This document shows, piece by piece, positions 19,906 through 38,515 of a DNA stretch of 64,000 nucleotides. Each line of letters starts with the position of its first letter. Position 1 is the first letter of the stretch. Both the position numbers and the translations under genes were made by a program. The DNA comes from a phage: assembly GCA_014686905.1 (NCBI GenBank), contig GCA_014686905.1_4093.1. One strand, written 5' to 3'. A model generated the notes under the pieces. The model was not told the DNA's origin. It searched no databases and saw nothing but the letters and a program-made list of their open reading frames with translations.

Positions 19906-21054
19906 TCACTGCAAAAATGACATATCGACTTCGGTATAATTAAGAACGTTCTGTCCAGCAATACCTCCCATTACTACAATTGAAGCCCCACAATAATATA
20001 ACTTCGAAGTGTCAGTAAGTATAAGTGAACCAGATGGGGTGCGTACCAAATTACACGAAGTATTAAACGAAGTATATGAAGGGGTATAAGAGTACTGATT
20101 AATATTATTACCAACACCTAATTGACCAGACGAGTTGCTTCCAGATGCATAAAGTACTTCATCACCTTTAACTATATGTGACGCCATGTTACCAACACAA
20201 GTATATAAACTATAAACTCCTGAACTCAATAATGTTGGAGTTTTGTATTGTATATCTGTAGATGAAGAAGTACCACCTGTGCCAAATTCGTTCCCGTATT
20301 GTGCACCGAACTGTTTACCACATGCGTACAAATTATTATCTGATTTAATAAAAAATGTACTCTGATAACTTACATCAAAATCTATAACATCCGAAGCAAT
20401 CATCGTCACCCCAGTAATAGAAGTTTGATTACCTGTACCTAACTGATAGTAATAGTTAAAACCACAACCCCATAAAGTATTATCTTCTTTTAGGTATATG
20501 TTACCAACTGCCTTTTTAACCGAAGTTATAGTATCTACCCTTTTGAATGTGTTAAAAGAATTAATGTTTGTACCATCACCAAATGATGATAGGTTAGAGT
20601 TATTGTTAGCTCCACAACAATACAATGTACCATCGTTTGTTATCAAATTTACCTTCATATCATTAAAACTACTCATGTATTTTATATCAGAAACATTAAT
20701 ACCACCTGATGTTATCCACGTAGTACATTCCGTCCACAAAGTTTTTCTATCAGTTACACCAGTGAATGCCTTCGTGTTACCAGTGATAAAAACTTTTCCA
20801 GTACCTTTCTCTTCATACAATTGACAATCACTACTGTTATTTTCCAATAGAACTCGTTTAACATTCTCCGCACTAAGAATAAATTTACTCGACGAAACAC
20901 CTGTTCCAGTACCCCAATTCGTCGCAGAAGATGCATACAACTTATCAGTATAAGTATCATGAAGATACATGGAATCACTGGAATATATTTTAAAACGTCC
21001 ATCATCACCAGGGGCAATATTCCCGTACTTAATCATTCTAACAAAAGGTAACAT
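19906..21054 (-). CDS. RCC1-like repeat protein with N-terminal tag MLPFVRMIKYGN
   Basis: Start set to ATG at 21054; near-duplicate of 17503-18651. Confidence 0.7.
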   Translation of the reverse strand: MLPFVRMIKYGNIAPGDDGRFKIYSSDSMYLHDTYTDKLYASSATNWGTGTGVSSSKFILSAENVKRVLLENNSSDCQLYEEKGTGKVFITGNTKAFTGVTDRKTLWTECTTWITSGGINVSDIKYMSSFNDMKVNLITNDGTLYCCGANNNSNLSSFGDGTNINSFNTFKRVDTITSVKKAVGNIYLKEDNTLWGCGFNYYYQLGTGNQTSITGVTMIASDVIDFDVSYQSTFFIKSDNNLYACGKQFGAQYGNEFGTGGTSSSTDIQYKTPTLLSSGVYSLYTCVGNMASHIVKGDEVLYASGSNSSGQLGVGNNINQYSYTPSYTSFNTSCNLVRTPSGSLILTDTSKLYYCGASIVVMGGIAGQNVLNYTEVDMSFLQ

Positions 21055-21156
21055 ATTTCCCTCCTTATTCATTATATCATATTTACCCCATAAAGAAAAC
21101 CCTTGACATCCTTTCAGTACTGGTGTACTATAGAAGGAATATAAGGAGAACTACAC

Positions 21157-25380: not shown

Positions 25381-26457
25381 TTAAACACAAGTAGACAGGG
25401 GAAGCTCCTAGTGAACAACCTTTATGTACAGGCGAATTGTTAAAATTCAGCCTGGACAAATGCGATCACTAGGATTCTCCCCAGGCTAAACCCCGTAATC
25501 ATAGGTAGTCATAAGTAATCATATATAAACATTTATATGAGCACCGTAGAATCACAGAATGATTATATATGATTCAGTACTGATTAGTATAGACAAGAAT
25601 GCTCAAGAATGCACGGGAAGGATTCAGTACTGATATGCCACTAAGTAGGCAGAGGAAGTCTGCCGTACTTTTTAGTTTCCAAGCTCCTTTTCCATTTTTC
25701 AAATTACATCAAATGTAATCAAAAGTAATCACGCAATGATTAGTACTGAATTATTACTTTCACCTTAATTTCAATTACCCCTTTACCCTTCGGGGTAAAA
25801 TTCAATTACCCCTTGAGGCTCCAGCAAAAAGTTGGTTAGTACTCCATCCTAAATCTCGATCCTAAAAATTTTGGAGTACCTATGAAATAAAAGTTGGATC
25901 TTCGAAAGTTGAAATTTACGTTGGGACGTTTATGATTTGTGGGATATAATGATGTTTGTAGTCGGGTAGTTCTCAAGAATATCAGTACTGAATAATGAAA
26001 GAAAGCTATTGACATTATGATTCAGTACTGTATAATGTTCTACATAGAGAGATGAGTTGCTGCGAACAATTCATTTACTCTATCTCCTGTCGTGAGACAG
26101 TACAGAAAAGATAGTTCCTCCTGTGGTGGTACATCTTTTTGAACCTCATATGAAAATCGTAATAACAGTACTGATATTAACAGAATGGTGTCAGTACTGA
26201 TTTTAATCTAAAGCATTATGCCACCAGCTTGTGCTGGTGGATTCCCTCTAACAGTATTCAGTACTACATGATGGTCTTCATCCTCCTAGGGTAACATAGT
26301 GAGGGCTATGATGGCAGTACTGAATACTCCCTTTCAAAAGATAGATCTATGGTATAGTACTGACGGATTTTGGGTGTAGTTACCCTGGATGGATTTTGGG
26401 CGTAGATATGTCTAGCCCTCCAGAAGTCTGGAAGTAAAGATGGCTATCCATCTAGAC

Positions 26458-26520
26458 GGCTAAACGGCTAGATGGCTGGATGGCTAGACGTTTGGACGGC
26501 TAAACGGCTAGATGGTTACA
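26458..26520. repeat. short tandem repeat unit ACGGCTAAACGGCTAGATGG (x2, with related GGCTGGATGGCTAGACG between)
   Basis: Direct reading of 26440-26545. Confidence 0.55.
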
Positions 26521-27161
26521 CGTCTGGAAGTATAGACGGCTAAATCAAAATTTTATTTTGTTTTTCCAATAGTTCCCCTACCGCGTGGGGATAGTTTCCC
26601 CGCAGTATCTGGCGTTAGATTTTTCTGAATCTGGAATCATTATCTTATAAACTGGGGGCAATGTCAACGACCTGGACGGATATTTTTAAAAATTTTTTCA
26701 GTACTGAATTTTGGGCGTAACTATGCACCCGGTGGGCTTGAGTCTTTCTCGACTTGATGGAACTATTATACAGTACTGGAAAAATAAAGCAATACCCTGG
26801 ATGAAAAAAGTTTTAATTAATTTGCTTGCCATCCTGGGCCGGACTATGGTACTATATTTCAGTACTGAGAAAGTGCGTTTACCTGCTAGGGTGCGGGAGT
26901 GTATCCTTTTTTTATATCTTGAATTTTGGACGGATCTTCCCACCCCCTGGGGTATCCGCTTTCTCGCGTCTATGTAGTAATTATACGCTTTTTCAGGATC
27001 AAGTCAATACCTAAAAACAAAATAATTGAAAATAATTTAACGCGTTTAAACGGCCCGTAACGCCCTGGAATGATTAGAATGGTGCAAATGTATAGCTTAG
27101 GTGTATTAATGCGTTAGAATGCGTCTGAGGCCGTTTTATGGGGTGTAGTAGTGATTTGGTT

Positions 27162-27252
27162 GATTCAGTACTGAATAATAGTACTCCTATATAGAAAGAT
27201 AGTTCCCCTGGATTGATTCAGTACTGAATAATAGTACTCCTATATAGAAAGA
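27162..27252. repeat. 38-bp direct repeat GATTCAGTACTGAATAATAGTACTCCTATATAGAAAGA (x2, 15-bp spacer)
   Basis: Identical copies at 27162-27199 and 27215-27252. Confidence 0.7.
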
Positions 27253-27283
27253 AAACTATTTTAAAAGTATTTGTAGAAAGTAC

Positions 27284-27311
27284 TTGCACCGTACTGATAA
27301 AAGCGTATAAT
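27284..27311 (+). promoter_or_regulatory. sigma70-like early-type promoter (TTGCAC, 16-bp spacer, TATAAT), representative of about 35 similar promoters in 27.3-45 kb
   Basis: TACTTGCA(A/C)...GCGTATAATGTTTTACATC recurs before most small genes in this region. Confidence 0.6.
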
Positions 27312-27325
27312 GTTTTACATCGAGA

Positions 27326-27342
27326 GCGGGAACACTTCCCGC
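27326..27342 (+). promoter_or_regulatory. conserved 5' leader stem-loop (GCGGGAA-CAC-TTCCCGC), representative of about 25 instances
   Basis: Stem-loop sits a few nt after the predicted start site (...TTTTACATC) and 10-20 nt before the SD; stem sequence varies between copies with compensatory changes. Confidence 0.55.
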
Positions 27343-27366
27343 TACACTTTAAGAGAGATTAATACG

Positions 27367-27729
27367 ATGGCAACTCAAATCACCAAAATTATTGCTAACC
27401 TGGTTAACTTCCGCGACGAGATGAAAGATCTTCCGGCGGCGACGGTTAAAACTCACATTGACGCATACCGCGAACTGATTAAAATGCTGCCGCTTAAGCG
27501 TGAACAATACGCCGCTACCGTGATGCTTGATGCGATGATCCATAAGATGATCGCCAGTGATTTGACGATGGTTTATCAGTATATGGGCGAAAATTTCGCG
27601 GTGTGTAGTAAGCCAGTACCAGGGATGGCAACAACTGAGGAATTGCACGGCTTAAACTTAAAACAAGATGCATGGGATAATATGCCTCGTTTCCTGGTAT
27701 GGGCTGACAGTGGCAAAATTTACAAATAA
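27367..27729 (+). CDS. hypothetical early protein
   Basis: Start moved to MATQITKI after SD AGAGAG (track ORF began inside promoter/leader). Confidence 0.6.
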   Translation: MATQITKIIANLVNFRDEMKDLPAATVKTHIDAYRELIKMLPLKREQYAATVMLDAMIHKMIASDLTMVYQYMGENFAVCSKPVPGMATTEELHGLNLKQDAWDNMPRFLVWADSGKIYK

Positions 27730-27824
27730 GTTTAATAAAGTACTTGCAAACTATGTTTAATGGCGTATAATGTTTTACATCAGGTGGGGAATAGTTCCCC
27801 ACTATATAAGAGGATTAAAAAAAA

Positions 27825-28064
27825 ATGGCTAAATCAAAAATGTTCTTAGGTCACAAAAACAAAACTCATTGGAATGTAAGCCTGTGGATTAATAACGATG
27901 AGGGATTGTATCGGTTGGCCCTGGACTTTATTGCCGCCAATACTAATCGCAATGATGCGGCCCGTCATATGATGTTATTTTTAGAACAGACTGGACAAGA
28001 TAAAACACCGGACGGATTCAAATATAGCACTACTGCGATCCGTGCGGCGATGGTTGGAATGTAA
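27825..28064 (+). CDS. hypothetical early protein
   Basis: Promoter plus leader hairpin GGTGGGGAATAGTTCCCCACT upstream; SD AGAGGA. Confidence 0.6.
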   Translation: MAKSKMFLGHKNKTHWNVSLWINNDEGLYRLALDFIAANTNRNDAARHMMLFLEQTGQDKTPDGFKYSTTAIRAAMVGM

Positions 28065-28150
28065 TAGAATTTATTTAAAGTACTATCATTTTTTTGCGAT
28101 AGTACTTTATAATAGTGTTTTATTCATACACCAACGATAAGGGCAACAGC

Positions 28151-28417
28151 ATGAATATTAAGTATTTTGCGACGCGTGAACAAGCTCGGATCGCCGCACG
28201 CCAGGACGGGGCAACGTTTAAAGATATGGGAGCGGGATCGGCAAGTGGTGAACGTTGGGCCATTGTAAAGCGTAGTACGGCCAGATCATTACAGTACTGG
28301 TTAGCGGCCTTAAAAAGTCCCGATAGTGTATCGCGTCGAGTGGTAGAAATAAAGCTCGACCGAAAGGGCAACCGCGTGACCGTGTACCGTACTAAAAAGA
28401 TTGCAGTACTTGAATAA
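28151..28417 (+). CDS. hypothetical early protein; paralog of 39568-39963
   Basis: MNIKYFATREQARIAARQDGATFKDMG...DRKGNRVTVYRTKK parallels MITKFYATREAARIVAREEGAAFKDMG...DRKGNRVTVYSKRR. Confidence 0.6.
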   Translation: MNIKYFATREQARIAARQDGATFKDMGAGSASGERWAIVKRSTARSLQYWLAALKSPDSVSRRVVEIKLDRKGNRVTVYRTKKIAVLE

Positions 28418-28504
28418 AAAGTACTTGCAAACTATGTTTAAAGGCGTATAATGTTTTACATCGAGAGCGGGAACTCTTCCCGCCTATAACCTGGAGTAAT
28501 AAAA

Positions 28505-28735
28505 ATGACTAATATGTATATGACTGAAGTTAAAACCGTAAAAGATACTACCACGAATAAAACTACTTACTTACAGCGGATCTGTGGTGTATGGCAACGT
28601 ATCAGCAAATCAAAGTACTTTAAATTAACATCATATGCAAACCGTTCTGATTCATTCAGTACTGAAATAAAAGGTAATAAAGTACACCAATACGGCACTT
28701 ATTATTATTACAGCCTGGACGCGATTGCAGTATAA
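28505..28735 (+). CDS. hypothetical early protein
   Basis: Promoter plus leader hairpin GCGGGAACTCTTCCCGCC upstream; SD GGAG. Confidence 0.55.
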   Translation: MTNMYMTEVKTVKDTTTNKTTYLQRICGVWQRISKSKYFKLTSYANRSDSFSTEIKGNKVHQYGTYYYYSLDAIAV

Positions 28736-28984
28736 GCAGTTTACAAATCTTTACAATTGCCGGTATTGACTTATTTTGTCAGTACTGGCATAATGTATTC
28801 ATTGGCAGATAAGCCGTAGCCCATAGGGTGCGGGAGTGTATCTATAGAAAAATTAGTTTAGTATAGTTACAATTGTGCACCCGGTGGGTTAGCTGTTGTC
28901 ATGGGGTATATTATGCCAGTACTTGATAATGCTGTCAATACTTTTTTTTACTATCCAGTACAGAAAACTATTTTTAAAAAGTAC

Positions 28985-29012
28985 TTGCAAACTATGTTTA
29001 AAGGCGTATAAT
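28985..29012 (+). promoter_or_regulatory. early-type promoter upstream of structured leader element
   Basis: TTGCAA, 16-bp spacer, TATAAT. Confidence 0.55.
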
Positions 29013-29018
29013 GTTTTA

Positions 29019-29096
29019 CATCAGGACGGGGAACGAAATAAGTAACTTCCCGTTAAGTAGCCCAGGAGTAAGGCACACGAAAAACTCCCCTGATAA
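29019..29096 (+). ncRNA. candidate small structured RNA / leader element between tandem promoters (copy 1)
   Basis: About 78 nt starting CAGGACGGGGAACG..., internal complementarity ACGGGGAA/TTCCCGT; near-identical copy at 38373-38450; no ORF. Confidence 0.3.
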
Positions 29097-29162
29097 AATA
29101 GTTTGACAAATGTTTTTAAAAGCGTATAATACTTACATCAACTACTGAATGAGGGTTATAAA

Positions 29163-29774
29163 ATGAAAACTATCACTACTACTACTTTCGTTATGGATTT
29201 TTCTGAATTGAACGCAGAACAAAAAACGTCAGCTATCGAACTGGTTCGGGAACGTGAAAAAAACTCAAACGACAATTATTTTTCTGAAAGTGAAATTGAA
29301 TACTATAAAGAAACAGTACTACCGGAATATGGCATTAATGACGCTGAAATACAATTCAGTGGTTTTTGGTCCCAGGGTGACGGTGCATCAATCAGTACTG
29401 ACCACGTTGACGCAGTGAAGTTTTTACGCAAGGTTAGAGCGTTAACTAAGTATCGCTCAATCCGTCACCTGCTGAATGAAGATGATTTGGCGATGAGTGT
29501 AAAGCGTTCTCACTCCCACTACTCGCATGAGAATACTGTAAGCGGGTACATTGAATCGGCTTACACTGATTTAACCGCAAAACAAGAAACGTTAGTTAAT
29601 GAGCTTGAGGAACTACTCACTGATACTATTCGTGAATTGTCCCGTAAGTTGTACCGTGATTTAGAGAATGCATATGAGGATCAATTCACTACTGAAAACA
29701 TTACGGCACTGATTGAGGGTAACGAATATCAATTCAATGTTATTGATGGCGTAGTAGAATCAATCGAATATTAA
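29163..29774 (+). CDS. hypothetical acidic protein
   Basis: 203-aa ORF; SD GAGGG; second promoter TTGACA...TATAAT at about 29103-29130. Confidence 0.65.
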   Translation: MKTITTTTFVMDFSELNAEQKTSAIELVREREKNSNDNYFSESEIEYYKETVLPEYGINDAEIQFSGFWSQGDGASISTDHVDAVKFLRKVRALTKYRSIRHLLNEDDLAMSVKRSHSHYSHENTVSGYIESAYTDLTAKQETLVNELEELLTDTIRELSRKLYRDLENAYEDQFTTENITALIEGNEYQFNVIDGVVESIEY

Positions 29775-29866
29775 TTCAAAAAGTACTGGACACTAAGCAA
29801 TAAAGGCGTATAATACTTTATATCGAGAGCGGGAATAGTTCCCGCTACTAATGAGGAATACTACAA

Positions 29867-30031
29867 ATGAATACTTTTACCTTCGCTCAATTGAACGCCC
29901 TGGATGTATTGTCTGATGCTTTGCGGGATGCAACTGAAAGCGGTTTATTTGACAATGTTGACATTCACCCTGATGTAATTAATAATTTTTGTGATGCTAT
30001 CGCAGAAGTACTGGAAGATCTAAAAAAATAA
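29867..30031 (+). CDS. hypothetical small protein (54 aa)
   Basis: Promoter plus leader hairpin GCGGGAATAGTTCCCGC then SD GAGGAA; hand-translated. Confidence 0.45.
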   Translation: MNTFTFAQLNALDVLSDALRDATESGLFDNVDIHPDVINNFCDAIAEVLEDLKK

Positions 30032-30119
30032 TAGAAAGTACTTGCAATTAGTTTTTAGTACTGTATAATAGTTTACATAGAGGGGAGAAATGGTTCTCCC
30101 TGGTAATGAGGAAAATAAA

Positions 30120-30341
30120 ATGGCTAATATCACTACTCTTTCTCAACTGGAAGCACTGGTTAAATCTATGCGGGAACATGCAGACAATATCGGCGTAAAA
30201 GATCCAGCCGTTTGCTTCTGCGACGAAATGAATGATGATACACTGGTAATAGCAGAAGTACAAGATATTTCTAACTATTCATCGCGTTACACTGGCGGCG
30301 TAGCAAATAAAGGTGACTTCTGTTTATACCTTACCAAATAA
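30120..30341 (+). CDS. hypothetical early protein
   Basis: Start moved to MANITTLSQ after SD GAGGAA; leader hairpin upstream. Confidence 0.55.
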   Translation: MANITTLSQLEALVKSMREHADNIGVKDPAVCFCDEMNDDTLVIAEVQDISNYSSRYTGGVANKGDFCLYLTK

Positions 30342-30346
30342 CAACG

Positions 30347-30376
30347 CGGGGAGATAATAACTCCCCGTTACTTTTT
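30347..30376 (+). terminator. intrinsic terminator-like hairpin
   Basis: CGGGGAG-ATAATAA-CTCCCCG followed by T-rich tract. Confidence 0.5.
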
Positions 30377-30585
30377 CAGTACTGAATCATTTAATAGACG
30401 GATCTCGGCACCCTGTGGGTTAGTGACTGTATCGTCTTTATGTAGTAATTATGCCAGTACTGGATGCAGTTGTCAACAATTATTTTTCAAATACTTTTTA
30501 TTAAAATACTTGCTATTAGTTTTTAAACGCGTATAATGTTTTGCATAGGGGGAGCGGTTCCCCCTGGTAACTAAGGAATAAGAAA

Positions 30586-30819
30586 ATGCTTGAACAAATC
30601 AAATCAACGTCTGCTAATGTAACGGGAACGGTATCACACTTTATTGGTGATGAATCGCGGGGCGTTCCCTATTGTGCTGTACATGTAAACACTGAGGGTA
30701 ACTACTGGTTTACGGTTTACGGATCATATTCATTTGGACGGCCAGGGCATCAAAAAATTCTGGATAAAGTACAACCAACGGGTAAAAATATCACTGCCGA
30801 AATGTTTTATAAAAACTAA
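30586..30819 (+). CDS. hypothetical early protein
   Basis: Promoter, leader hairpin GGGGGAGCGGTTCCCCC, SD AAGGAA. Confidence 0.6.
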   Translation: MLEQIKSTSANVTGTVSHFIGDESRGVPYCAVHVNTEGNYWFTVYGSYSFGRPGHQKILDKVQPTGKNITAEMFYKN

Positions 30820-30906
30820 TAAAATACTTGATAATAGTTTTTAGTACTGTATAATATTTTACATAGCACGGGGGAGCGGTTCCCCCTGGTAACTAAGGAT
30901 AATCAA

Positions 30907-31206
30907 ATGAAAATTGCAATCATCGCCCTGGCTTTATCTGTTTCCTCTTTCTCTGTTAATGCGTCGTTAGATGTACCTAGTGAAAAATTCATTCAGTGCA
31001 CCGTAGCGATGACCGATGAAAGTACTGGCGAGATTGTTTTAAAGGATTTAGAGATCCAGCCAGAAGCATTTAAAAACGGCCCGTTCCATGAAGAAGACGA
31101 AAACGGTAGCACAACAATTTATTATGATGCAAGTACTAAACGCGGTTCGGTCACTGTAATGGATACAGAGAAAGTAACACACACAGGAGTAATTAACTGT
31201 TTATAA
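30907..31206 (+). CDS. secreted/periplasmic small protein (signal peptide)
   Basis: N-terminus MKIAIIALALSVSSFSVNA-SLD has n/h/c regions and AxA-like cleavage site. Confidence 0.6.
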   Translation: MKIAIIALALSVSSFSVNASLDVPSEKFIQCTVAMTDESTGEIVLKDLEIQPEAFKNGPFHEEDENGSTTIYYDASTKRGSVTVMDTEKVTHTGVINCL

Positions 31207-31212
31207 ATCACT

Positions 31213-31240
31213 AGCCCACTCATACAGTGGGCTTTTTTAT
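31213..31240 (+). terminator. intrinsic terminator
   Basis: AGCCCACT-CATAC-AGTGGGCT followed by TTTTTT. Confidence 0.7.
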
Positions 31241-31434
31241 TTTTGTAGTACTGCATACTTTGAAAATAGTTTTAAGAAAGTAGTTGACATTACCGCAGAA
31301 AAGCGTAGAATGTATTACATCAAGACGGGGAGCACTAAGTAGACCGCCAGTAAGTCGAACGAAAAACTGGACACGTCGAGAAAACTTTGATACACTATCT
31401 AACGTAAACTAAACTTTAATTGAGGAATTATATA

Positions 31435-31917
31435 ATGGCTAATGTAAAATCATTCATCAAAGCACTGGTAGCAAATGAAACTAACGTAGCGGCAGAGATC
31501 CTGGCAGAACTGGATAACGATACCATGAAAGCAGTACGCAACAATTTTAACATTGCGTACAGTGAAGCTAAAGAACTGCAAGCCAAAAAGGTAGCAGAAC
31601 TGGAAGAACAGAAAAAAGCCCGTGAAGCAGAACTACAAGCAACAATTGAAAGTATCCAGTCGGCGGTGTCTGGATTGGATCTGGAAGTGGTTGTTGAAAT
31701 GGCACATAAAGCCCTGGCGGTTAAGTACGGTGAAGATAAGCCGGAATCTAAGCCTAAAAAATGGATTCAGGAACGCGTAGCGGTAGTACTTGATAACGGT
31801 GAAGAACATTTGATTCCTGTACGCGGTAACTGCATTGCGGTAGTACTGGACGCTATCAAAGAAAGCGGTATGACTCGCGAGGAATGGATCGAAGCTCATC
31901 GCAAAGTTGAAGCATAA
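31435..31917 (+). CDS. hypothetical protein (Lys/Glu/Ala-rich, probably helical)
   Basis: Start moved to MANVKSF after SD GAGGAA; long 5' leader. Confidence 0.6.
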   Translation: MANVKSFIKALVANETNVAAEILAELDNDTMKAVRNNFNIAYSEAKELQAKKVAELEEQKKAREAELQATIESIQSAVSGLDLEVVVEMAHKALAVKYGEDKPESKPKKWIQERVAVVLDNGEEHLIPVRGNCIAVVLDAIKESGMTREEWIEAHRKVEA

Positions 31918-31937
31918 CAATTAAAGTACTGAATCAA

Positions 31938-31966
31938 TAGCCCACCTTAAACAGTGGGCTTTTTTG
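31938..31966 (+). terminator. intrinsic terminator
   Basis: AGCCCACC-TTAAA-CAGTGGGCT followed by TTTTTT. Confidence 0.65.
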
Positions 31967-32201
31967 TGTCTATAGTATTCCAGTCCACTAGCACCGCCTA
32001 GAATCGATTCTAACGCATTAAACTGATTATCTGATACATCGCCCTAGCTGGTGGCGTTAAGGTCGTTAGAAAGCGATTGAGAGTGTTTAAAGTATTTTGC
32101 AAAAAGTAATAAAAAGTACTTGCATGATTAAGAGATTAGCGTATAATGTTTTACATCGAAAGGGGAAACGGTTCTCCTTCCAAATCAAAGGAATCAAAAC
32201 A

Positions 32202-32429
32202 ATGGCTATTATCATTACTCGCGTATCTGGTACTACTGGCAATTCTTCTACTGTTGCAGTCATTACTAACAAGGCAGGTGCGGAATTGCAAAATGCAATG
32301 AATACCTGGGCCGTTAATGAGTTCGGTCAGTGGGCAAGTGTAGCATACATTGAAACCTATCAAGTGCCGACCATTAGTTTAACGGATCTTGGTGTGGAAC
32401 GTATCCTTTGCTTGGATGAATTAAATTAA
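32202..32429 (+). CDS. hypothetical early protein
   Basis: Start moved to MAIIITRVSG after SD AAGGAA; promoter plus leader hairpin upstream. Confidence 0.55.
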   Translation: MAIIITRVSGTTGNSSTVAVITNKAGAELQNAMNTWAVNEFGQWASVAYIETYQVPTISLTDLGVERILCLDELN

Positions 32430-32514
32430 AAAAGTACTTGCAAAGTAAATCGAATAAAGTATAATACATTACATCAAGGGGAGAAATGATTCTCCCCACT
32501 ACAAGGAAACTAAT

Positions 32515-32658
32515 ATGAAAACTTGTCAATGTGGTAAAAAATCTATTACTGGTTTAAAGCGGGGCGTTGCTCTTTGCCAGTACCATTATAATTTACAAGT
32601 ATGGGGTAAAGAATGGGCCGACCAGGTGGAAGCAATTAAGAAAGCAAAAAGTAAGTAA
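32515..32658 (+). CDS. small Cys-containing protein (47 aa)
   Basis: Promoter plus leader hairpin GGGGAGAAATGATTCTCCCC; SD AAGGAA; hand-translated. Confidence 0.4.
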   Translation: MKTCQCGKKSITGLKRGVALCQYHYNLQVWGKEWADQVEAIKKAKSK

Positions 32659-32670
32659 AAATATTATCAC

Positions 32671-32708
32671 AGTACTATTGACATAGTTTGATAGTACTGG
32701 CATAATAG
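32671..32708 (+). promoter_or_regulatory. promoter module class 2 with flanking inverted repeat (AGTACTAT-TGACATAGTTTG-ATAGTACT, CATAAT), copy 1 of 3
   Basis: TTGACA, 17-bp spacer, CATAAT; near-identical modules at 35408-35446 and 43114-43150. Confidence 0.55.
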
Positions 32709-32747
32709 ATTTTATCAAGACAACATATTAATTTAAGGAATACTAAA

Positions 32748-33071
32748 ATGGCTAAAACTATCATTAACACCGTTTCCCTGGCTGCAATCCGTGCAATCAA
32801 TGTTGACGGTAAACGTTGGACTGATTCATATGGCAATACTTATCATTCTTGTCATGTAAGCGTCGAACTGGATAACGGTTTGAATGTTCTGGCGGTTGAA
32901 TCATTTACTTATGGCTATGAAGATGCATATCAACAAACGGCGTTAGATCTATTAAAGGAATCAGTAGACGGGCTTAATACTGATGAAACCTCCCTTACTC
33001 GTTTGTGCAATGATCTTAATATCCCGTTGCATTGTACTGTACAGAATGTTAAACGCAAAAAAGATCTTTAA
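32748..33071 (+). CDS. hypothetical protein; paralog of 39149-39472
   Basis: Shared motifs RWTDSxGNTYHSC, TFTYGY, VKRKKD. Confidence 0.65.
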   Translation: MAKTIINTVSLAAIRAINVDGKRWTDSYGNTYHSCHVSVELDNGLNVLAVESFTYGYEDAYQQTALDLLKESVDGLNTDETSLTRLCNDLNIPLHCTVQNVKRKKDL

Positions 33072-33151
33072 TTAGCTTTACTTTATGCAGATACTTTGAT
33101 ATAGTGTCTGCATAGGGGAAAGAAATTAAATTAACTTAAGAGGATCGTATA

Positions 33152-33421
33152 ATGAAAAATATCAGTACTTTAATCGATGCAGGTACACATGTTCGGCGGT
33201 CTATGGTTGCAACCAGTACTACAAAACAAGTAGCGAGCGGTTATCTTGTATTTGTGCACGATGGTAAACTCCTGGAACGTTCAATCAATTTTGATGTTAA
33301 AAACAATTGCCGTTTTATTATCTTTAAGCGTGAACAATATAAAATTGATTTACCAGCAAAGCCCATTAGCGGGGCGTACAACGTGCAATCATTGTTTGAG
33401 CGTCAACCTTACACCTATTAA
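33152..33421 (+). CDS. hypothetical early protein
   Basis: SD AAGAGGA upstream. Confidence 0.55.
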   Translation: MKNISTLIDAGTHVRRSMVATSTTKQVASGYLVFVHDGKLLERSINFDVKNNCRFIIFKREQYKIDLPAKPISGAYNVQSLFERQPYTY

Positions 33422-33472
33422 TCAAAACATCGTTAGCGGTCGATTTAGGCCGCTTGTATTGGGGATTATACC

Positions 33473-33643
33473 ATGAACGTTAATCAAGTACTGAATGAGA
33501 TCGAAAGCATCATTAAACCAATGAAACGCATTGATGCTATGTTAACACCGGAAGAATGCCGCCTTTATGAGCGTTACAGTGTGGAACAAGCCCAGGAAAT
33601 GGCCCGTATCCGTCCGGTTGCCAGTACTGATAAGGCGGCGTAA
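33473..33643 (+). CDS. hypothetical small protein (56 aa)
   Basis: Hand-translated; stop overlaps next start (TAATATG). Confidence 0.45.
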   Translation: MNVNQVLNEIESIIKPMKRIDAMLTPEECRLYERYSVEQAQEMARIRPVASTDKAA

Positions 33644-33644
33644 T

Positions 33645-33854
33645 ATGCTTACTGTACAGGATAAGATCGACATCTTAAAGGTTAATATGTATGTGATTGA
33701 TGCCGTACCTGGTAAAGTATTTGCATACGATGATTCTAATCGCAGTCCGTTTTATTGCAGTCATGTAGTTGGATACGTGCCGTTGGCGTATGTTATAGAA
33801 AGAGTGGTTGATGCAGCATACAAACATTTTTTAGAAAATAATACTTGCAATTAG
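33645..33854 (+). CDS. hypothetical small protein
   Basis: Start moved to MLTVQDKIDIL; translationally coupled to upstream ORF. Confidence 0.5.
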   Translation: MLTVQDKIDILKVNMYVIDAVPGKVFAYDDSNRSPFYCSHVVGYVPLAYVIERVVDAAYKHFLENNTCN

Positions 33855-33924
33855 TTTTCAGTACTGTATAATGATTTACATCGAGAGCGGGAATAGTTCC
33901 CGCCTCACTTTTAAGGAATATGAA

Positions 33925-34071
33925 ATGAAAGCATCAAAAAAGAGTAATACTAAGAAAGCATGTTCACCTTTCGCTGGGGTATTCCCTTTACGTTTCGTTG
34001 ATGAAGTGGTTTCCTACCCGCCTGGCCTTACTCCTGAGATGGTAGAAAGTTTGCGTAAATCTAAAAAATAG
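33925..34071 (+). CDS. hypothetical small basic protein (48 aa)
   Basis: Start moved to MKASKKSN after leader hairpin and SD AAGGAA. Confidence 0.45.
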   Translation: MKASKKSNTKKACSPFAGVFPLRFVDEVVSYPPGLTPEMVESLRKSKK

Positions 34072-34152
34072 TACTTGCAATTAGTTTTTAAACGCGTATA
34101 ATGTTTTACATGAAGGGGAGAAATGATTCTCCCCAATAACAGGAGAAACAAA

Positions 34153-34305
34153 ATGAAACAATATAATGCTCGGTTTGATGTTACTATCGGTAACGGCAAA
34201 GGTCAATTCTCTTTCAGTACTCGCAAAAGTTATACAGAAAACTTCCTGCGTAATTGTGCACTGACCGCCGCTCAAATTAAACATTATTTTCAGGCTAAAA
34301 AATGA
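34153..34305 (+). CDS. hypothetical small protein (50 aa)
   Basis: Start moved to MKQYNARFD after SD AGGAGA; leader hairpin upstream. Confidence 0.45.
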   Translation: MKQYNARFDVTIGNGKGQFSFSTRKSYTENFLRNCALTAAQIKHYFQAKK

Positions 34306-34391
34306 AATCATTTGCTTACTATAGTTCTGCGGTGATCGGTGCATTGATCGCGGCGTTGTTAGTAACCTATCTATTCTTTATGGTGATTTAA
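34302..34391 (+). CDS. tiny membrane peptide (29 aa)
   Basis: ATGA overlap with upstream stop; single hydrophobic helix. Confidence 0.35.
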   Translation: MKSFAYYSSAVIGALIAALLVTYLFFMVI

Positions 34392-34535
34392 ATGAATCCA
34401 ACAGGCTTAAATTATAAAAGTTGTTCGGCGTTTACGAAAGCAAATAAAGCGAATGCACGTAAAGCGAAAGTACAGGAGTACATCAAGCAAGGCATGACGC
34501 GAAAGGCGGCGATTCTAAAAGCTAAAAATAAATGA
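34392..34535 (+). CDS. small basic protein (47 aa)
   Basis: Abuts previous stop; Lys/Ala-rich. Confidence 0.4.
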   Translation: MNPTGLNYKSCSAFTKANKANARKAKVQEYIKQGMTRKAAILKAKNK

Positions 34536-34537
34536 AA

Positions 34538-34575
34538 AAAGTGGTTGACTCCGGTCAGCCATTTTGCTATTATAT
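34538..34575 (+). terminator. composite hairpin terminator plus promoter (TGGTTGAC-TCCG-GTCAGCCA, TTTTGC, TATTAT)
   Basis: Same architecture as 1157-1204; recurs at 38211, 41480, 43738. Confidence 0.55.
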
Positions 34576-34599
34576 ATTCATTGAGAGATAGCTCACTAG

Positions 34600-34624
34600 C
34601 CCACAGGGTGCATAAGTGTATCTA
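34600..34624 (+). promoter_or_regulatory. conserved intergenic motif CCCACAGGGTGCATAAGTGTATCT
   Basis: Near-identical motif at 38269-38292, 41542-41565, 43797-43820; related copies near 36270 and 28810; reverse-orientation core near 30410 and 26727. Confidence 0.5.
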
Positions 34625-34745
34625 TTATATAAGTATTGAGTACTGAAAACTATTTTTAAAAAGTACTTGCAAACTATCTCAATAAGCGTATAATGTTTTA
34701 CATCGAAAGGGGAAACGGTTTCCCCTGGTAATAAGGAAACAAATC

Positions 34746-35087
34746 ATGACTATCTCAATTGCTCAATCTAACTTTGAAAATGAAATCATCGCCCAGGCAC
34801 TGCGTTTAAATGATGGTCGGGCCGAAATTAATTACGGTTTCAATTCAGGCGGTTGCGAAAACTATCAGTACTTTGTAACGGCTGATGGCGGTGTCCTGGG
34901 TATCAATACAGTTATTGTAAACATCCAAAAAATTAATTTCAATGATCCAGACGATAGCCAGTTTTACATCACTGGCGTAGACGTGAACTATGAGGATGAC
35001 TCACTAACTGATGATCACACTGGCGAGCGGTTAGAAAGTGCATACGGTGAAGATGATTATCAGTCCGGTCCAGAAGATTTCGAATAA
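34746..35087 (+). CDS. hypothetical acidic protein
   Basis: Promoter plus leader hairpin AGGGGAAACGGTTTCCCCT; SD AAGGAAAC. Confidence 0.6.
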   Translation: MTISIAQSNFENEIIAQALRLNDGRAEINYGFNSGGCENYQYFVTADGGVLGINTVIVNIQKINFNDPDDSQFYITGVDVNYEDDSLTDDHTGERLESAYGEDDYQSGPEDFE

Positions 35088-35182
35088 TATAAAAAATAGT
35101 TTGACAATAGATTATAGTACTGTATAATAGTTTACATCAAGGGGAGAAAAACTTCTCCCCACTAACAGAGAGAGAAAACAAA

Positions 35183-35395
35183 ATGGCTAATATCCGGTCG
35201 AAATTAAAAAATGCAAAACAAGTTTTATTTTCAGATCATGAATACTTTAATAAAGATATTACAGGAGTTACAAGTATCAAGGAAGTAAAAGAAAAAACCG
35301 GCGTTTTGTGTGATGTGCGATTAGTTGGAACATTTGGGAATAACGTGCTATATCGCTGCGGTGATTACAATTTTACACTGACTATCATTAACTAA
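35183..35395 (+). CDS. hypothetical early protein
   Basis: TTGACA promoter, leader hairpin GGGGAGAAAAACTTCTCCCC, SD AGAGAGAGAA. Confidence 0.55.
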   Translation: MANIRSKLKNAKQVLFSDHEYFNKDITGVTSIKEVKEKTGVLCDVRLVGTFGNNVLYRCGDYNFTLTIIN

Positions 35396-35407
35396 AAATA
35401 TTATCAC

Positions 35408-35446
35408 AGTACTATTGACATAGTTTGATAGTACTGACATAATAAC
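35408..35446 (+). promoter_or_regulatory. promoter module class 2 with flanking inverted repeat, copy 2 of 3
   Basis: AGTACTATTGACATAGTTTGATAGTACTGACATAATAAC. Confidence 0.55.
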
Positions 35447-35478
35447 TTTTATCAACTACACTACTAAGGAATTAAAAA

Positions 35479-35658
35479 ATGGCTATCATCGCAAAAACTG
35501 AAATCGTTGGTCTGGATTCTATCATCATGACGTTTGAAGATCAAAAAGGTATGTATGTAGTTTCCTATGGTGATTATGTTCGGGAGTATGAAACGGTAGA
35601 CGAAGCCTTTGAAAGTTATATTCGCCAGGTGAATAAAGCATACGATGACTACCGCTAA
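35479..35658 (+). CDS. hypothetical small protein (59 aa)
   Basis: SD AAGGAA; hand-translated MAIIAKTEIVGLDS... Confidence 0.45.
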   Translation: MAIIAKTEIVGLDSIIMTFEDQKGMYVVSYGDYVREYETVDEAFESYIRQVNKAYDDYR

Positions 35659-35757
35659 AATATATTACCAGTACTATTAAATCTATTGACAACGTTTGAT
35701 AGTACTGTATAATAAGTTTTATAAACAGTAGTTAACTTAACCTAAGAGAGAAACAAA

Positions 35758-35901
35758 ATGATCGCACTGGATTCATTCATCGACGCAGTACTGGCAAAAA
35801 CTGGCGAGGATCTGACCGCAGAACAATACGCGATGATCGAGCAATGTCAGCAAAACGGTAAATCGGTGAAAGATACTGTTAAGATTATCCGCAAGATGTA
35901 A
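35758..35901 (+). CDS. hypothetical small protein (47 aa)
   Basis: SD AAGAGAGAAAC; followed by hairpin. Confidence 0.45.
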   Translation: MIALDSFIDAVLAKTGEDLTAEQYAMIEQCQQNGKSVKDTVKIIRKM

Positions 35902-35907
35902 TATTAT

Positions 35908-35936
35908 AGCCCACTGGTTAACGCTGGTGGGCTTTA
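35908..35936 (+). terminator. terminator-like hairpin
   Basis: AGCCCAC-TGGTTAACGCTG-GTGGGCT, weak T tract. Confidence 0.45.
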
Positions 35937-36006
35937 ATCATTTACCCTATACAATGCCAGTACTAAACCGTTTATCTCATTAGAATGCGTTACAGGACGT
36001 TTAACA

Positions 36007-36204
36007 ATGATTAGCATGAAATCAGTACAAAAACAAATAGAAACATTATCAAAAATTAAACGTAAACAATACTCCTTAGAATATACAATCAATGGTAACT
36101 ATCATCTAATGAAAGAAAATAATTTTATAGTCATTGATGAATCATTGCAAATCATTAGTATAGTACTGAAAGCATTAATCAATGACAGAAAAAAATTAAA
36201 ATAA
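36007..36204 (+). CDS. hypothetical small protein
   Basis: 65-aa ORF; weak SD. Confidence 0.45.
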   Translation: MISMKSVQKQIETLSKIKRKQYSLEYTINGNYHLMKENNFIVIDESLQIISIVLKALINDRKKLK

Positions 36205-36295
36205 TTGTTGACATACAATGCCAGTACTGGCATAATACTTACATCAAGACGAGAACGTCACCAACCCATAGGGTGCACAAATGTAACTATATAAT

Positions 36296-36375
36296 ATCGA
36301 TCAATAAATGATCAAAAAAGTACTGGATCAATTTAGCATAAGGCGTATAATTCTGATCAATTCTTGATCAAAGGC
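36296..36375. repeat. cluster of five GATCAA (three as TGATCAA) repeats within 73 bp, overlapping a TATAAT box
   Basis: GATCAA at 36299, 36310, 36326, 36355, 36366. Confidence 0.55.
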
Positions 36376-36532
36376 AATAAACGTAGTTGAAATTATATAG
36401 AAAGTACAAAGGCGTTACCATTCGTGGTAATGCTGGGGAATATGTAGTATCATACGGTTTGAATAAAATCAGTACTAGTAGTATAATCGTAGCATTGCAG
36501 TACTATAGTATTTTTATAATGAGGTTAAAATA

Positions 36533-36790
36533 ATGGCTGTAGGATTTGCGAAGGACGGGGCCGAACAAGACGAGATTAACGCAGTGATTCAGGCCGCCGT
36601 AAACCACGCTAGAAAGCAAATTAACGCACAAATAGAATCACTGGTACATTGCCTCGACTGCGGCGATATAATCCCTGAGAAACGACGCCAGGCCGTTAAG
36701 GGATGTAAGTACTGCATAACTTGCCAGGAGGATCATGATAGTACTTTTAAACGTCCCCCGCGTAATTGTTGGCATAGATCTATGAGATAA
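36533..36790 (+). CDS. DksA/TraR-family C4 zinc-finger protein
   Basis: CLDCGDIIPEKRRQAVKGCKYCITC: two CxxC pairs with typical spacing, small size. Confidence 0.65.
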   Translation: MAVGFAKDGAEQDEINAVIQAAVNHARKQINAQIESLVHCLDCGDIIPEKRRQAVKGCKYCITCQEDHDSTFKRPPRNCWHRSMR

Positions 36791-36853
36791 AAAGTATTGA
36801 CAGTACTGAAAGATAGTGTATAATATTTTATATCTTAACTGAGGATTGAAATC

Positions 36854-37210
36854 ATGGGAATACAACATATCACGCGTACTACTGACAATGGCGAGATCAC
36901 TGGCTATCAAGTACAGGGCAAAGTAGCACAATTGCAGTACTGGTTTGTTAAACGTGGAATCATTGCACCGGATCTTGATTATGACCGTGTAGCGTTTATT
37001 GATTCTCTTTATGTTGATCCTGATAGTCGGGGCAATGGTGAAGGTAACGAATTAATGAATGCCTTTATTGATGCCGCCGATGATTCAGATTGTATCATTT
37101 TAGAATGCGATACAGGAGAAGATAACGCCTTCAATCTTAAAGAATGGTACGAAGGTTTCGGATTCGAGGTACTGATCGATAGTGAATATCCTATCATGAT
37201 TTTATCATAG
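36854..37210 (+). CDS. putative GNAT-type acetyltransferase-like protein
   Basis: LYVDPDSRGNGEGNELMNAF resembles the GNAT acetyl-CoA-binding loop; weak. Confidence 0.4.
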   Translation: MGIQHITRTTDNGEITGYQVQGKVAQLQYWFVKRGIIAPDLDYDRVAFIDSLYVDPDSRGNGEGNELMNAFIDAADDSDCIILECDTGEDNAFNLKEWYEGFGFEVLIDSEYPIMILS

Positions 37211-37288
37211 TACTTGCATTTAGTTTTCAGTACTGTTATAGTACTTACATCAAGGGGAAACATCTTCCCCTACTAAGAGGAAATAAAA

Positions 37289-37477
37289 ATGGAAAACTTA
37301 TCAAGTATTTTAGTACAAGATGATTTCGGTAATCCTGGAAGTGCTATCATTGTTCGGGGTAATAAAGCAACGTTTGTTATTGCTGGTGGACCTGTACAGC
37401 GTAGCATTAAAAATAATGCTGTTACCATTAATAATGTACGCTATCGCTTAGATAAAGAATTGATTCATAAACTTTAA
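37289..37477 (+). CDS. hypothetical early protein
   Basis: Promoter, leader hairpin GGGGAAACATCTTCCCC, SD AGAGGAAA. Confidence 0.55.
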   Translation: MENLSSILVQDDFGNPGSAIIVRGNKATFVIAGGPVQRSIKNNAVTINNVRYRLDKELIHKL

Positions 37478-37561
37478 AAAGTATTTGACAATAGATTATA
37501 GTACTGTATAATAAGTTACATGAAGGGGTGAAATGATTCTCCCCACTAAGAGGAAAGAAAA

Positions 37562-37774
37562 ATGCAAGGTCAACTAATCGTTCGTAAATGGTCTGATACT
37601 AACGAAAAACCGTGGGATGTACAATACATCGGACCGGATGGGGTATCACGTTATCAGCCTGGCGTAACGCATAGTACTGAGCAATTCGCAAACGCTCACC
37701 GCGAACGCCTGTTAGAATCCATGAAACAGGGATTCTGTGAAAAATTCATTCAAGATCATTGGCTGAAAGATTAA
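37562..37774 (+). CDS. hypothetical early protein
   Basis: TTGACA promoter, leader hairpin, SD AGAGGAAAG. Confidence 0.55.
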   Translation: MQGQLIVRKWSDTNEKPWDVQYIGPDGVSRYQPGVTHSTEQFANAHRERLLESMKQGFCEKFIQDHWLKD

Positions 37775-37791
37775 TATAAGGAGTACAGCTT

Positions 37792-37884
37792 ATGCAAATG
37801 AATCCGATGATTATTGTTTTAGCTGTACTTATGATCATTCATGCAATAGTAGAAGTATTAACGCAATCAGGAGTAATAAAATGA
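37792..37884 (+). CDS. tiny membrane peptide (30 aa)
   Basis: SD AAGGAG; single hydrophobic helix. Confidence 0.35.
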   Translation: MQMNPMIIVLAVLMIIHAIVEVLTQSGVIK

Positions 37885-38054
37885 TTCAAGTAGAATTATC
37901 AGTACTGAAAGATCTGTTTTATCGGTTAGGTACTACTGGCGAGTATCCTAAAAGTGATACCGCAAAACTTTTTGTATCACTCGACTTATGGCAACGCGAA
38001 CAATTAGTAATGTCCTGGCGTAAAGGTAAAGCAGATAGCGAGGTGAAAGCATGA
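37881..38054 (+). CDS. hypothetical small protein (57 aa)
   Basis: ATGA overlap with upstream peptide. Confidence 0.45.
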   Translation: MIQVELSVLKDLFYRLGTTGEYPKSDTAKLFVSLDLWQREQLVMSWRKGKADSEVKA

Positions 38055-38200
38055 AAGAATTCTTATTCGAAGTAGTGTTTCAAGGTGTCGGTAGTAACCA
38101 ACTGATTCGCTCAAGTGGTTACAATGTTAACCAGGCATGGAATAACATTAAACAAATGTACCCGAACGCTATCACCTATCGCAACCCGAAACAAGTTTAA
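38051..38200 (+). CDS. hypothetical small protein (49 aa)
   Basis: ATGA overlap; followed by composite terminator element. Confidence 0.45.
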   Translation: MKEFLFEVVFQGVGSNQLIRSSGYNVNQAWNNIKQMYPNAITYRNPKQV

Positions 38201-38210
38201 AAATAATTGA

Positions 38211-38250
38211 AAAAGGGATTGACTCCGGTCAGTCCCTTTGCTATTATATA
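38211..38250 (+). terminator. composite hairpin terminator plus promoter (GGGATTGAC-TCCG-GTCAGTCCC, TATTAT)
   Basis: Same architecture as 1157-1204. Confidence 0.55.
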
Positions 38251-38372
38251 CGCATAGAAACAAATCAGCCCACAGGGTGCATAAATGTATCTATTGTTTG
38301 CTGGTGGCTAGTACTGAAAACTATTTTTAAAAAAGTACTTGCATTGTACTTAGAATCAAGTATAATGTTTTA

Positions 38373-38450
38373 CATCAGGACGGGGAACGAAACAAGTAAC
38401 CCCGTTAAGTAGTCCAGGAGTAAGACATAAGAAAACCTCCCCTGATAAAA
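38373..38450 (+). ncRNA. candidate small structured RNA / leader element between tandem promoters (copy 2)
   Basis: Near-identical to 29019-29096; bracketed by two promoters. Confidence 0.3.
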
Positions 38451-38515
38451 TAGTTTGACAATAGAAAGTAAACGAGTATAATACTTACATCAACCACTGA
38501 TAAGGAAACATTAAA

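Follow-up and report, generated by a model that had tools for sequence, protein, structure and literature searches.

The DNA analysed here is a 64,000-nucleotide stretch of a phage genome (NCBI GenBank assembly GCA_014686905.1, contig GCA_014686905.1_4093.1), which we call the window and number from its first letter. The window is Asteriusvirus DNA, from a jumbo coliphage of the PBECO4/121Q/G17 kind. Our subject is a 1.9-kb block, delimited at 25381–27283 in a preliminary description made from the sequence alone, that is 95–98% identical over its full length to PBECO4, G17, fEgEco12, SP27 and some 30 other Asteriusvirus (~350 kb) coliphages. As that description had proposed, it is the only long stretch of the window free of open reading frames (ORFs); the runner-up gap measures only 252 bp, and the true extent of the block is 25381–27366. 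From the end of the gene at 25380 to the first gene of a direct terminal repeat (DTR), whose left boundary falls inside the block, there is no conserved ORF.

The right edge of the block is 27366 because the first repeat gene starts at the ATG at 27367 rather than at 27310. The gene is usually annotated from the latter (27310–27729, 139 aa), which sits within the −10 box of the promoter. That the ATG at 27367 (120 aa) is the true start follows from a PHROG match beginning at residue 19, from the short form annotated in 121Q and from the position of the ribosome-binding site. We rejected a protein-coding reading of the block itself: its ORFs are short, use TTG or GTG starts and change frame through 1-nt indels across eight aligned relatives. 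A hint of synonymous-like changes relative to Klebsiella phage Muenster came from four codons and is better explained by a conserved minus-strand promoter. Deposited Asteriusvirus annotations mostly leave the block empty, and the ‘hypothetical proteins’ called there are probably spurious. ARAGORN found no tRNA or tmRNA in the window, and an Rfam covariance-model search gave no match at the gathering threshold and none at E ≤ 1.

Central to our interpretation is the left boundary of the ~19.6-kb DTR, at 25643/25644. From homology with relatives whose ends have been mapped, we place the DTR of the window at 25644–45223 on the + strand (19,580 bp), which splits the block into ~263 bp of unique-side DNA and ~1.72 kb that form the first part of the repeat. 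The virion DNA end reads ...ATTCAGTACTGATATGCCACTA^AGTAGG (^ marks the cut), at the identical nucleotide in G17, fEgEco12 and vB_Ec-M-J, and the end-site 25-mer, ATTCAGTACTGATATGCCACTA^AGT, lies at 25622–25646 on the + strand. A packaging site was among the functions first suggested for the block, and the suggestion is supported by the physical end of these three close relatives, which maps to 25643/25644. In G17, whose termini were determined from read coverage (PMC6563267), the two DTR copies occupy 1–20668 and 350150–370817; the end is at AGTAGGCAG, and the outer end of the repeat, AGTAGGCAGAGGAAGTCTGCC, corresponds to window position 25644. The fEgEco12 repeat of 20,993 bp, identified with PhageTerm and confirmed with restriction digests (PMC13070987), begins at the same nucleotide, as does the 21,525-bp repeat of vB_Ec-M-J. 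A repeat of 20,668 bp has been reported for Sharanji (PMC11895373), and Asteriusvirus records of ~366–384 kb hold the region twice, ~19 kb from a record end.

The right boundary, ...GGGTAACCT^TAGCGAC at 45223/45224, is likewise identical in G17, fEgEco12 and vB_Ec-M-J, and both boundary sequences occur unchanged in the window. It falls within a 219-bp intergenic gap (45072–45290), and a promoter-like site, TTGACT...TATAAAAT, stands just beyond it and would drive the next genes. The end-site 25-mer is 100% identical in the Klebsiella phages RaK2, K64-1, KP13-7 and RCIP0023, in which the surrounding non-coding DNA is ~70% identical or unalignable; a scan of IMG/VR with the end-site 19-mer matched RaK2 and 121Q only. 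The Muenster record was opened at the PhageTerm-defined repeat; it begins AGTCCG and ends ...TTCAGTACTGATATGCCACTA, where the 22 nt of the 25-mer that precede the cut recur with 100% identity. On the bottom strand, the right boundary reads GTCGCTA^AGG in Asteriusvirus, GTGCTA^AGC in Muenster and GGCTA^AGG in fENko-Kae01 (the boundaries of the last two are PhageTerm-based). Over the three clades, RCTA^ is found at six of six boundaries and CTA^AG, on opposite strands, at five of six; within each genome, the left and right boundaries are inverted relative to one another. The conserved sequence that flanks the cut includes a TCAGTACTGA palindrome 11 nt upstream of it.

The repeat is also marked by Chi octamers (GCTGGTGG). 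The hairpin at 26221–26240 is CCACCAGC-ttgt-GCTGGTGG, an inverted pair made of Chi and its complement, 577 bp from the 25644 end. G17 carries a ‘terminator’ annotation for it, a reading that we rejected, since neither strand has a T-run and the arms are two Chi octamers. The window holds nine Chi sites on the + strand and one on the − strand, every copy inside the repeat (26233–43855), against ~0.2 (0.19) exact copies expected per strand. One-mismatch variants within the repeat number only two (+) and one (−), and the + strand of the 44 kb outside it contains no Chi. G17 has 10 sites (9:1), all in 1–20668, with none in 24 kb of flanks, and Muenster has seven plus one, all in 1–20030, with none in the next 25 kb. 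RecBCD enters at a DNA end and recognizes 5'-GCTGGTGG-3' on the strand that has its 3' terminus there. Given this polarity, the nine + strand sites face the 45223 end, the nearest lying 1.4 kb in, and the block's complement copy is directed at the 25644 end. Both vB_Ec-M-J and the distant fENko-Kae01 retain the pair with different loops, in the latter ~490 bp from the end. The distribution of Chi is non-random, oriented and confined to the repeat. A literature search for Chi in terminal repeats returned nothing relevant.

By allowing any base before GTACTG, we found on the + strand of the repeat a family of ~16 early promoters, aAGTAtTGACAaaGTATcttAGTACTG(n)TATAATagTTTACATCaAGgGGag, typically one per small gene or gene group and each followed by a leader stem-loop. 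In these sigma-70-type promoters, AGTACTG abuts the −10 box. The promoter plus stem-loop module is present in ~16 copies in the repeat and in four to five in the block. The promoter at 26009–26036 (+) is perfect, agreeing with the consensus at 12 of 12 positions (TTGACA, a 16-nt spacer ending in CAGTACTG, TATAAT). At least three minus-strand family promoters aim at the cut site, and so at the genome end, with no ORF behind them. One is TTGCTT-N16-TATAAT at 26792–26765, its spacer ending in CAGTACTG. Another is TTGACT-N16-TATAAT at 27007–26980 (11 of 12), which is followed by the start signature of the family, ACATAGACGCGAGAAAG, and is conserved in Muenster and fENko-Kae01. The third is the promoter-like TTGACA-N17-GATAAT at 26667–26639 (11 of 12), invariant in eight genomes. 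The first repeat gene has a promoter of its own at 27284–27311 (+; AGTAC-TTGCAC, a 16-nt spacer, TATAAT at 27306–27311), followed, up to 27369, by a leader hairpin (27326–27342), the ribosome-binding site and the start codon. These promoters bear out the initial idea of a cluster of promoter-like or protein-binding sites. Raw promoter-like matches in the block, 12 in number, are not above the 10.2 found in shuffles; it is the family consensus that carries the promoter case. Two more consensus promoters with the AGTACTG word stand on the minus strand inside the repeat at 28922 and 30460, directed leftward and antisense to + genes. We found neither an Asteriusvirus transcriptome nor PBECO4/121Q promoter motifs in a literature search.

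The transcript predicted from the promoter at 26009 has no ORF. Its structured part (26043–26130, +) would consist of a 5' hairpin, a CTGTC-GTGA-GACAG hairpin and a closing helix, with a fold at z = −5.5 relative to shuffles. The 5' hairpin is retained in EJP2 through three compensatory changes, and the CTGTC-GTGA-GACAG hairpin is invariant. With seven sequences, mostly near-identical, behind this comparison, a structured non-coding RNA driven from 26009 is suggestive only. A second promoter-like sequence on the + strand, TTGCCA-N18-TACTAT, opens a short putative transcript region (26826–26914) that ends at a hairpin (26888–26907) followed by seven T. It lies in a segment, 26765–26986, with ~70% identity to RaK2-like Klebsiella phages.

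The palindromes that first drew attention to the block can be counted in several ways. In 25381–27283, TCAGTACTGA is found eight times exactly (of 15 copies in the window) and 12 times with one mismatch allowed, CAGTACTG 12 times (of 54 in the window, where 0.75 are expected) and AGTACT 19 times; the ‘about 14’ copies of the preliminary description are a fair figure for the loose form. That description had also proposed a comparison with the background frequency, and the outcome is divided. TCAGTACTGA reaches 4.2 copies per kb in the block, against 0.29 in other intergenic DNA and 0.09 in coding DNA, and CAGTACTG reaches 6.3 against 1.6 and 0.56. The AGTACT core is present at 10 per kb, against 9.4 in other intergenic DNA. 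The block is not special for the core, and it is the longer palindromes that are concentrated there. Boxes of the TA type had been said to follow many palindromes. NATAAT does follow five of the 12 CAGTACTG copies in the block (25983, 26023, 27166 and 27219 on the + strand, 26771 on the − strand), a pairing that is 12-fold over background window-wide. Palindrome copies outside promoters are found at 25575, 25625, 26315, 26699, 26860, 27166 and 27219 and in a pair at 26166/26192.

Across the window, AGTACT (the ScaI site) is the top palindromic hexamer, with 255 copies against 21.6 expected, a 12-fold over-representation. Within genes it occurs at 3.1 per kb in all three codon phases, so the signal is one of the DNA itself. 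AGTACT-free zones lie at 46–50 kb and 54–60 kb. Twenty-six GC-containing palindromic hexamers (GGATCC, CTGCAG, GTCGAC, CCATGG and others) are wholly absent from the window, so that strong restriction-site avoidance stands alongside one hugely favored palindrome. We considered and rejected a SlmA-binding site for the palindrome: forms with the core GAGTACTC number zero, and G is the least-used base before AGTACT. Our literature search for AGTACT or CAGTACTG in phages returned nothing relevant. The block contains no LexA boxes and one IHF site.

The direct repeats and the tandem listed at the outset are all present. GGATTTTGGGYGTAG occurs at 26365 and 26391, as two iteron-like repeats 26 bp apart (26365–26406, +) with variants at 26705 and 26920, and TCTGGAAGT occurs at 26427 and 26523. 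ACGGCTAAACGGCTAGATGG, at 26456 and 26496, represents two stretches of a tandem array of 13 units of 8 bp (GAYGGCTA; 26439–26542, +). Overall, the block holds 17 direct-repeat families and 38 inverted pairs. Its unique-side tail (25381–25643) has an imperfect inverted repeat (25392–25414 with 25466–25488), GTAATCA at 25495 and 25515, and TCAGTACTGA at 25574 and 25624. Just 4 nt inside the repeat, a hairpin, GGCAGAggaagTCTGCC, is followed by a T-run (25648–25674, +). It is conserved in six of seven relatives and looks like the intrinsic terminator of the upstream operon or an end hairpin. GTAATCA and 10-bp repeats at 25695–25737 mirror those at 25495–25523 on the other side of the cut. Further in are a 31-bp tandem duplication (25767–25828, +) that includes a TTTACCC-TTCG-GGGTAAA hairpin (25782–25799) and the block AGTACTCCATCCTAAATCTCGATCCTAAAAATTTTGGAGTAC (25838–25879), in which 8-bp inverted arms flank two ATCCTAAA repeats; the latter is invariant in eight Asteriusviruses including EJP2 and is also present near the fENko-Kae01 end. 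Two CAGTACTG palindromes form a 14-bp hairpin at 26166–26199, and a conserved hairpin, CCCCTACCGCGTGGGG, lies at 26575–26590 and has a homologous CCTACCGCG block in fENko-Kae01. The module TTAATGCGTTAGAATGCGTCTGAGGCCGTTTTA (27105–27138, +) is shared with phages of the T5 type, and a 53-bp tandem duplication (27160–27252, +) carries TCAGTACTGA plus AGTACT in each copy and varies in copy number among relatives.

Across eight Asteriusviruses, 72–89% of alignment columns are invariant in 26640–27140, compared to 5–59% elsewhere in the block; the unique-side tail just ahead of the cut is the most variable part among relatives. A leader of 1.3–1.5 kb with the same order of elements is retained in Muenster and fENko-Kae01. 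Reading inward, the shared order is the end, the hairpin/ATCCTAAA block, the promoter and its RNA, the inverted Chi pair, GGATTTTGGG and an array, then the CCTACCGCG hairpin, minus- and plus-strand promoters, and the first-gene promoter. The architecture is conserved in RaK2-like and Munch-like phages.

Regions of this type are known from T5 and, in broad terms, from T7, and the block is a jumbo-phage variant. No description of such a block was found in the searchable literature. In T5, a 1.2-kb untranslated ‘Repeat Region 3’ (RR3) marks the inner edge of the 10-kb left terminal repeat (NC_005859; bioRxiv 10.1101/866236). RR3 extends 270 bp beyond the repeat, abounds in repeats and palindromes and is the candidate for the injection stop signal (iss), for which paired DnaA boxes (TTWTNCACA) are the proposed conserved hallmark (Davison, bioRxiv 10.1101/866236). 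Like RR3, the block is more than 1 kb of untranslated DNA at a boundary between DTR and unique sequence, with an overrun of 263 bp, is dense in direct and inverted repeats as well as palindromes, and is better conserved than the adjacent small genes. At the sequence level the links to RR3 are only short ones, a 34-nt module (GCGTTAGAATGCG...CGTTTTA) and the words GGATTTTGGG, GAATCATTATC and GTGCAAAT. Unlike RR3, the block has no DnaA boxes and no LexA-like palindrome, its dominant repeat is the CAGTACTG palindrome, which T5 lacks, and its flanking genes are transcribed away from the region. The phages themselves differ as well, a 350-kb myovirus related to T4 and RaK2 as opposed to a siphovirus. 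We rejected colinear homology with RR3, since only short words match and their order is reversed, with orientation preserved.

The module at 27105–27138 matches 62 further records beyond 37 Asteriusviruses, over 31–34 nt at 85–90% identity and E = 0.01–0.2 each. Those among the further matches that were listed (~35) are all 104–138-kb coliphage, Salmonella, Shigella, Citrobacter or Klebsiella phage records, including several named T5 relatives. In standard-oriented records the module lies at ~8.5–10.4 kb, in Spc35 under a ‘left TR ... FST DNA’ feature. Annotated records place it inside the left terminal repeat, and T5's own copy is inside the annotated iss. Arrays that match the 8-bp one occur in the T5-like Vibrio phages Pontus (in terminal non-coding DNA) and pVp-1 and in Aeromonas phage AhSzq-1, as well as in GAP32 and Erwinia jumbo phages (pEa_SNUABM_12) near their record starts. 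Fur-box-like AATGAGAATCATT repeats are found in Muenster, fENko-Kae01 and T5, and the Klebsiella copies sit where Asteriusvirus has its 8-bp array. The word AAATGAGAATCATTATCATT and its variants occupy 780–1320 in the terminal leader of Muenster, 690–800 and 1040–1060 in that of fENko-Kae01 and 9560–9810 in the T5 iss region; the window has one partial copy only, GGAATCATTATC at 26632.

Other systems offer partial parallels. The left end of T7 reportedly combines a terminal repeat, arrays of short repeats (SRL and SRR) and the clustered early promoters A1–A3. Transcription toward the junction has been implicated in T7 maturation, and a staggered-nick or hairpin model accounts for duplication of the repeat. 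The features common to T7 and our phage are an exact terminal repeat, short tandem-repeat arrays near the ends and a gene-free leader of ~1 kb with strong host-polymerase promoters before the first gene. The T7 repeat, however, is 160 bp compared to 19.6 kb here, T7 has its own RNA polymerase, and the two share no sequence similarity. In T4-type phages, promoter-early stem-loop (PeSL) cassettes place a sigma-70-type promoter and a stem-loop before many small early genes in plastic regions. The module that recurs in the DTR resembles them, although its spacer carries the AGTACTG word and the cassettes of the block have no ORF and face both ways. As at E. coli Chi hotspots, the octamers are exact and in the orientation that RecBCD recognizes from each DNA end; here they are restricted to the phage terminal repeat and include an inverted pair. 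The pac site of P1 has TGATCA elements, repeated hexamers that flank the cut. Short repeated palindromes beside a packaging cut are thus common to both, but the palindrome here is common genome-wide and therefore cannot alone define the site.

Taken together, we consider it likely that the block is the terminal non-coding control region of the Asteriusvirus chromosome, which straddles the left DTR boundary and would serve in end formation, end protection and early transcription. Maturation would cut the concatemer at ATTCAGTACTGATATGCCACTA^AGT and, on the opposite strand, at the CTA^AG of 45223/45224. Two staggered nicks followed by strand-displacement synthesis would then duplicate the repeat, a scheme put forward for T7-type DTR phages. 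The mapped termini of relatives show where the cuts fall; that the ends arise by nicking and displacement is what we infer. The Chi pair 0.58 kb in and the nine same-strand Chi toward the other end may switch RecBCD from degradation to RecA loading, a response that would protect the DNA and favor repeat-to-repeat recombination whichever end RecBCD enters. The ~1.7-kb leader would be a series of promoter and stem-loop cassettes (TTGACA-N8-AGTACTG-TATAAT-...ACATCgAG) for early transcription. One cassette would drive the first repeat gene, one the structured non-coding RNA, and three, aimed at the cut site, would have no gene to express. We think it most likely that phage or host proteins bind at the free TCAGTACTGA copies, the GGATTTTGGGYGTAG repeats and the 8-bp array. 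The two-fold symmetry of the palindrome and its fixed place in early promoters would fit a dimeric regulator that might also mark the end site.

Several observations weigh against this interpretation. An important caveat is that the termini were mapped in relatives rather than in the present isolate. The left boundary of fENko-Kae01, CCGCTA^TAT, has CTA^TA instead of CTA^AG. With 35 occurrences of RCTAAG in the window, the pentamer by itself is not enough to specify the cut, and the flanking conserved sequence must provide specificity. Promoters hold only a minority of the palindrome copies, and the density of the AGTACT core is the same throughout intergenic DNA, so that no role of the palindrome specific to the block is established. 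The similarity of 26640–27140 to EJP2 is due in part to a shared mosaic block that also spans the first gene. Finally, transcript, protein-binding or RecBCD data for these phages are absent from the searchable literature.

Other explanations account for parts of the block. A locus devoted primarily to small RNAs, including a convergent antisense pair from the + promoter at 26826 and the − promoter at 27007, is possible, though we are inclined to doubt it. The consensus promoter with no ORF behind it, the stable predicted fold with some compensatory changes, the convergent promoters ~150 bp apart and the ~70% conservation of 26765–26986 in RaK2-like phages all agree with a small-RNA locus, which the preliminary description had raised. 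However, the Rfam search gave no family even at the permissive threshold, the structure is supported by only the seven, mostly near-identical sequences mentioned above, clear terminators are few, and the end site, the Chi pair and the arrays would be left unexplained. Alternatively, the block might be a graveyard of promoter cassettes that lost their small ORFs and has no function beyond the end site. Its promoter plus stem-loop modules do match those before every small repeat gene, and the copy numbers of the 53-bp unit and the array units vary among relatives. Even so, we regard such decay as quite improbable, because a leader of similar length and order is kept in three genus-level clades that share only ~29% of their genomes, and the invariance of 26640–27140 in eight genomes also speaks against it.

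The block had also been suggested as a replication origin, which either transcription or an initiator that binds the iterons would activate. This candidate is weakly supported and in our view unlikely. GC skew, negative between 6 and 25.5 kb, turns positive at the repeat boundary, whereas genes have been on the + strand since 21.1 kb; the block has the iteron-like GGATTTTGGGYGTAG repeats, the 8-bp array, AT-rich tracts (26545–26570 and 27010–27040) and promoters without genes on both strands. The skew flip, though, may just reflect the C-rich family of ~60-codon genes at 22–25.4 kb. The small + strand genes there have a GC skew of −0.13 to −0.31 and a positive AT skew, unlike the + genes in the repeat, and this strongly negative GC skew produces the cumulative minimum at the boundary. 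Moreover, 25381–27366 contains no DnaA box (all nine of the window lie elsewhere), no initiator gene was identified beside the block, duplication of an origin at both chromosome ends would be unusual, and the comparable T5 region is not an origin (Davison, bioRxiv 10.1101/866236). A T5-type injection stop, in which a protein-binding array, placed at the inner edge of the repeat that enters first, halts transfer until early proteins encoded in the repeat are made, strikes us as improbable. The topology is that of T5, down to overruns of nearly equal length, and the 34-nt module within T5-like left terminal repeats, the 8-bp array and the Fur-box-like repeats point the same way. If the Chi-rich end (45223) enters first, the rest of the repeat would go in ahead of the block. 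The missing DnaA boxes count against a stop signal too, as do the shortness and non-colinear order of the shared modules. No A1/A2-like protein is found among the ten largest repeat proteins, which comprise unknown PHROGs, a GNAT acetyltransferase and a weak kinase-like protein, and the iss mechanism is unproven even in T5. To our knowledge, two-step DNA transfer has never been reported for a myovirus, which again argues against a stop.

A bolder extension of the terminal control region can be imagined, which we offer as speculation with little expectation that it is right. RaK2-like jumbo myoviruses would deliver or mature their DNA in the manner of T5, centered on the terminal repeat, and the leader would be the true counterpart of the injection stop, bound by a dimeric protein that recognizes (T)CAGTACTG(A) and also sits in every early promoter and at the end site. 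Repeat entry, the shut-off of early transcription and cut recognition would thereby be coupled, and RecBCD and Chi co-opted for repeat recombination.

The genes around the block add some context. On the minus strand, 8163–21072 is a tandem array of ~11 paralogous genes of ~380–440 codons, two tested members of which have RCC1-repeat (beta-propeller) domains; the label ‘121Q putative DNA condensation protein’ probably derives from ‘regulator of chromosome condensation’. Just outside the repeat, 45300–47000 contains tandem paralogous ~60-codon genes with a recurring ...EDYVEEWI...-type C-terminus, and it coincides with an AGTACT-free island. Two repeat proteins, encoded at 36854–37210 and 40827–41468, are the GNAT acetyltransferase (Pfam E = 4e-9) and the weak protein-kinase-like protein, whose Muenster counterpart is annotated as a putative kinase. 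Both are candidates for host-takeover functions.

Many jumbo phages are now reported to have long exact terminal repeats, but for none of them is it known how the ends are cut, protected and used; the T5 iss region is still unexplained after ~40 years. Our analysis provides concrete handles on the problem: a nucleotide-precise cut-site sequence conserved across genera, whose pentamer recurs, inverted, at the opposite boundary; Chi sites that are restricted to the repeat and face its ends; a defined early-promoter consensus; and modules common to two unrelated phage morphotypes. For annotation, it shows the point at which Asteriusvirus and Alcyoneusvirus genomes should be opened.

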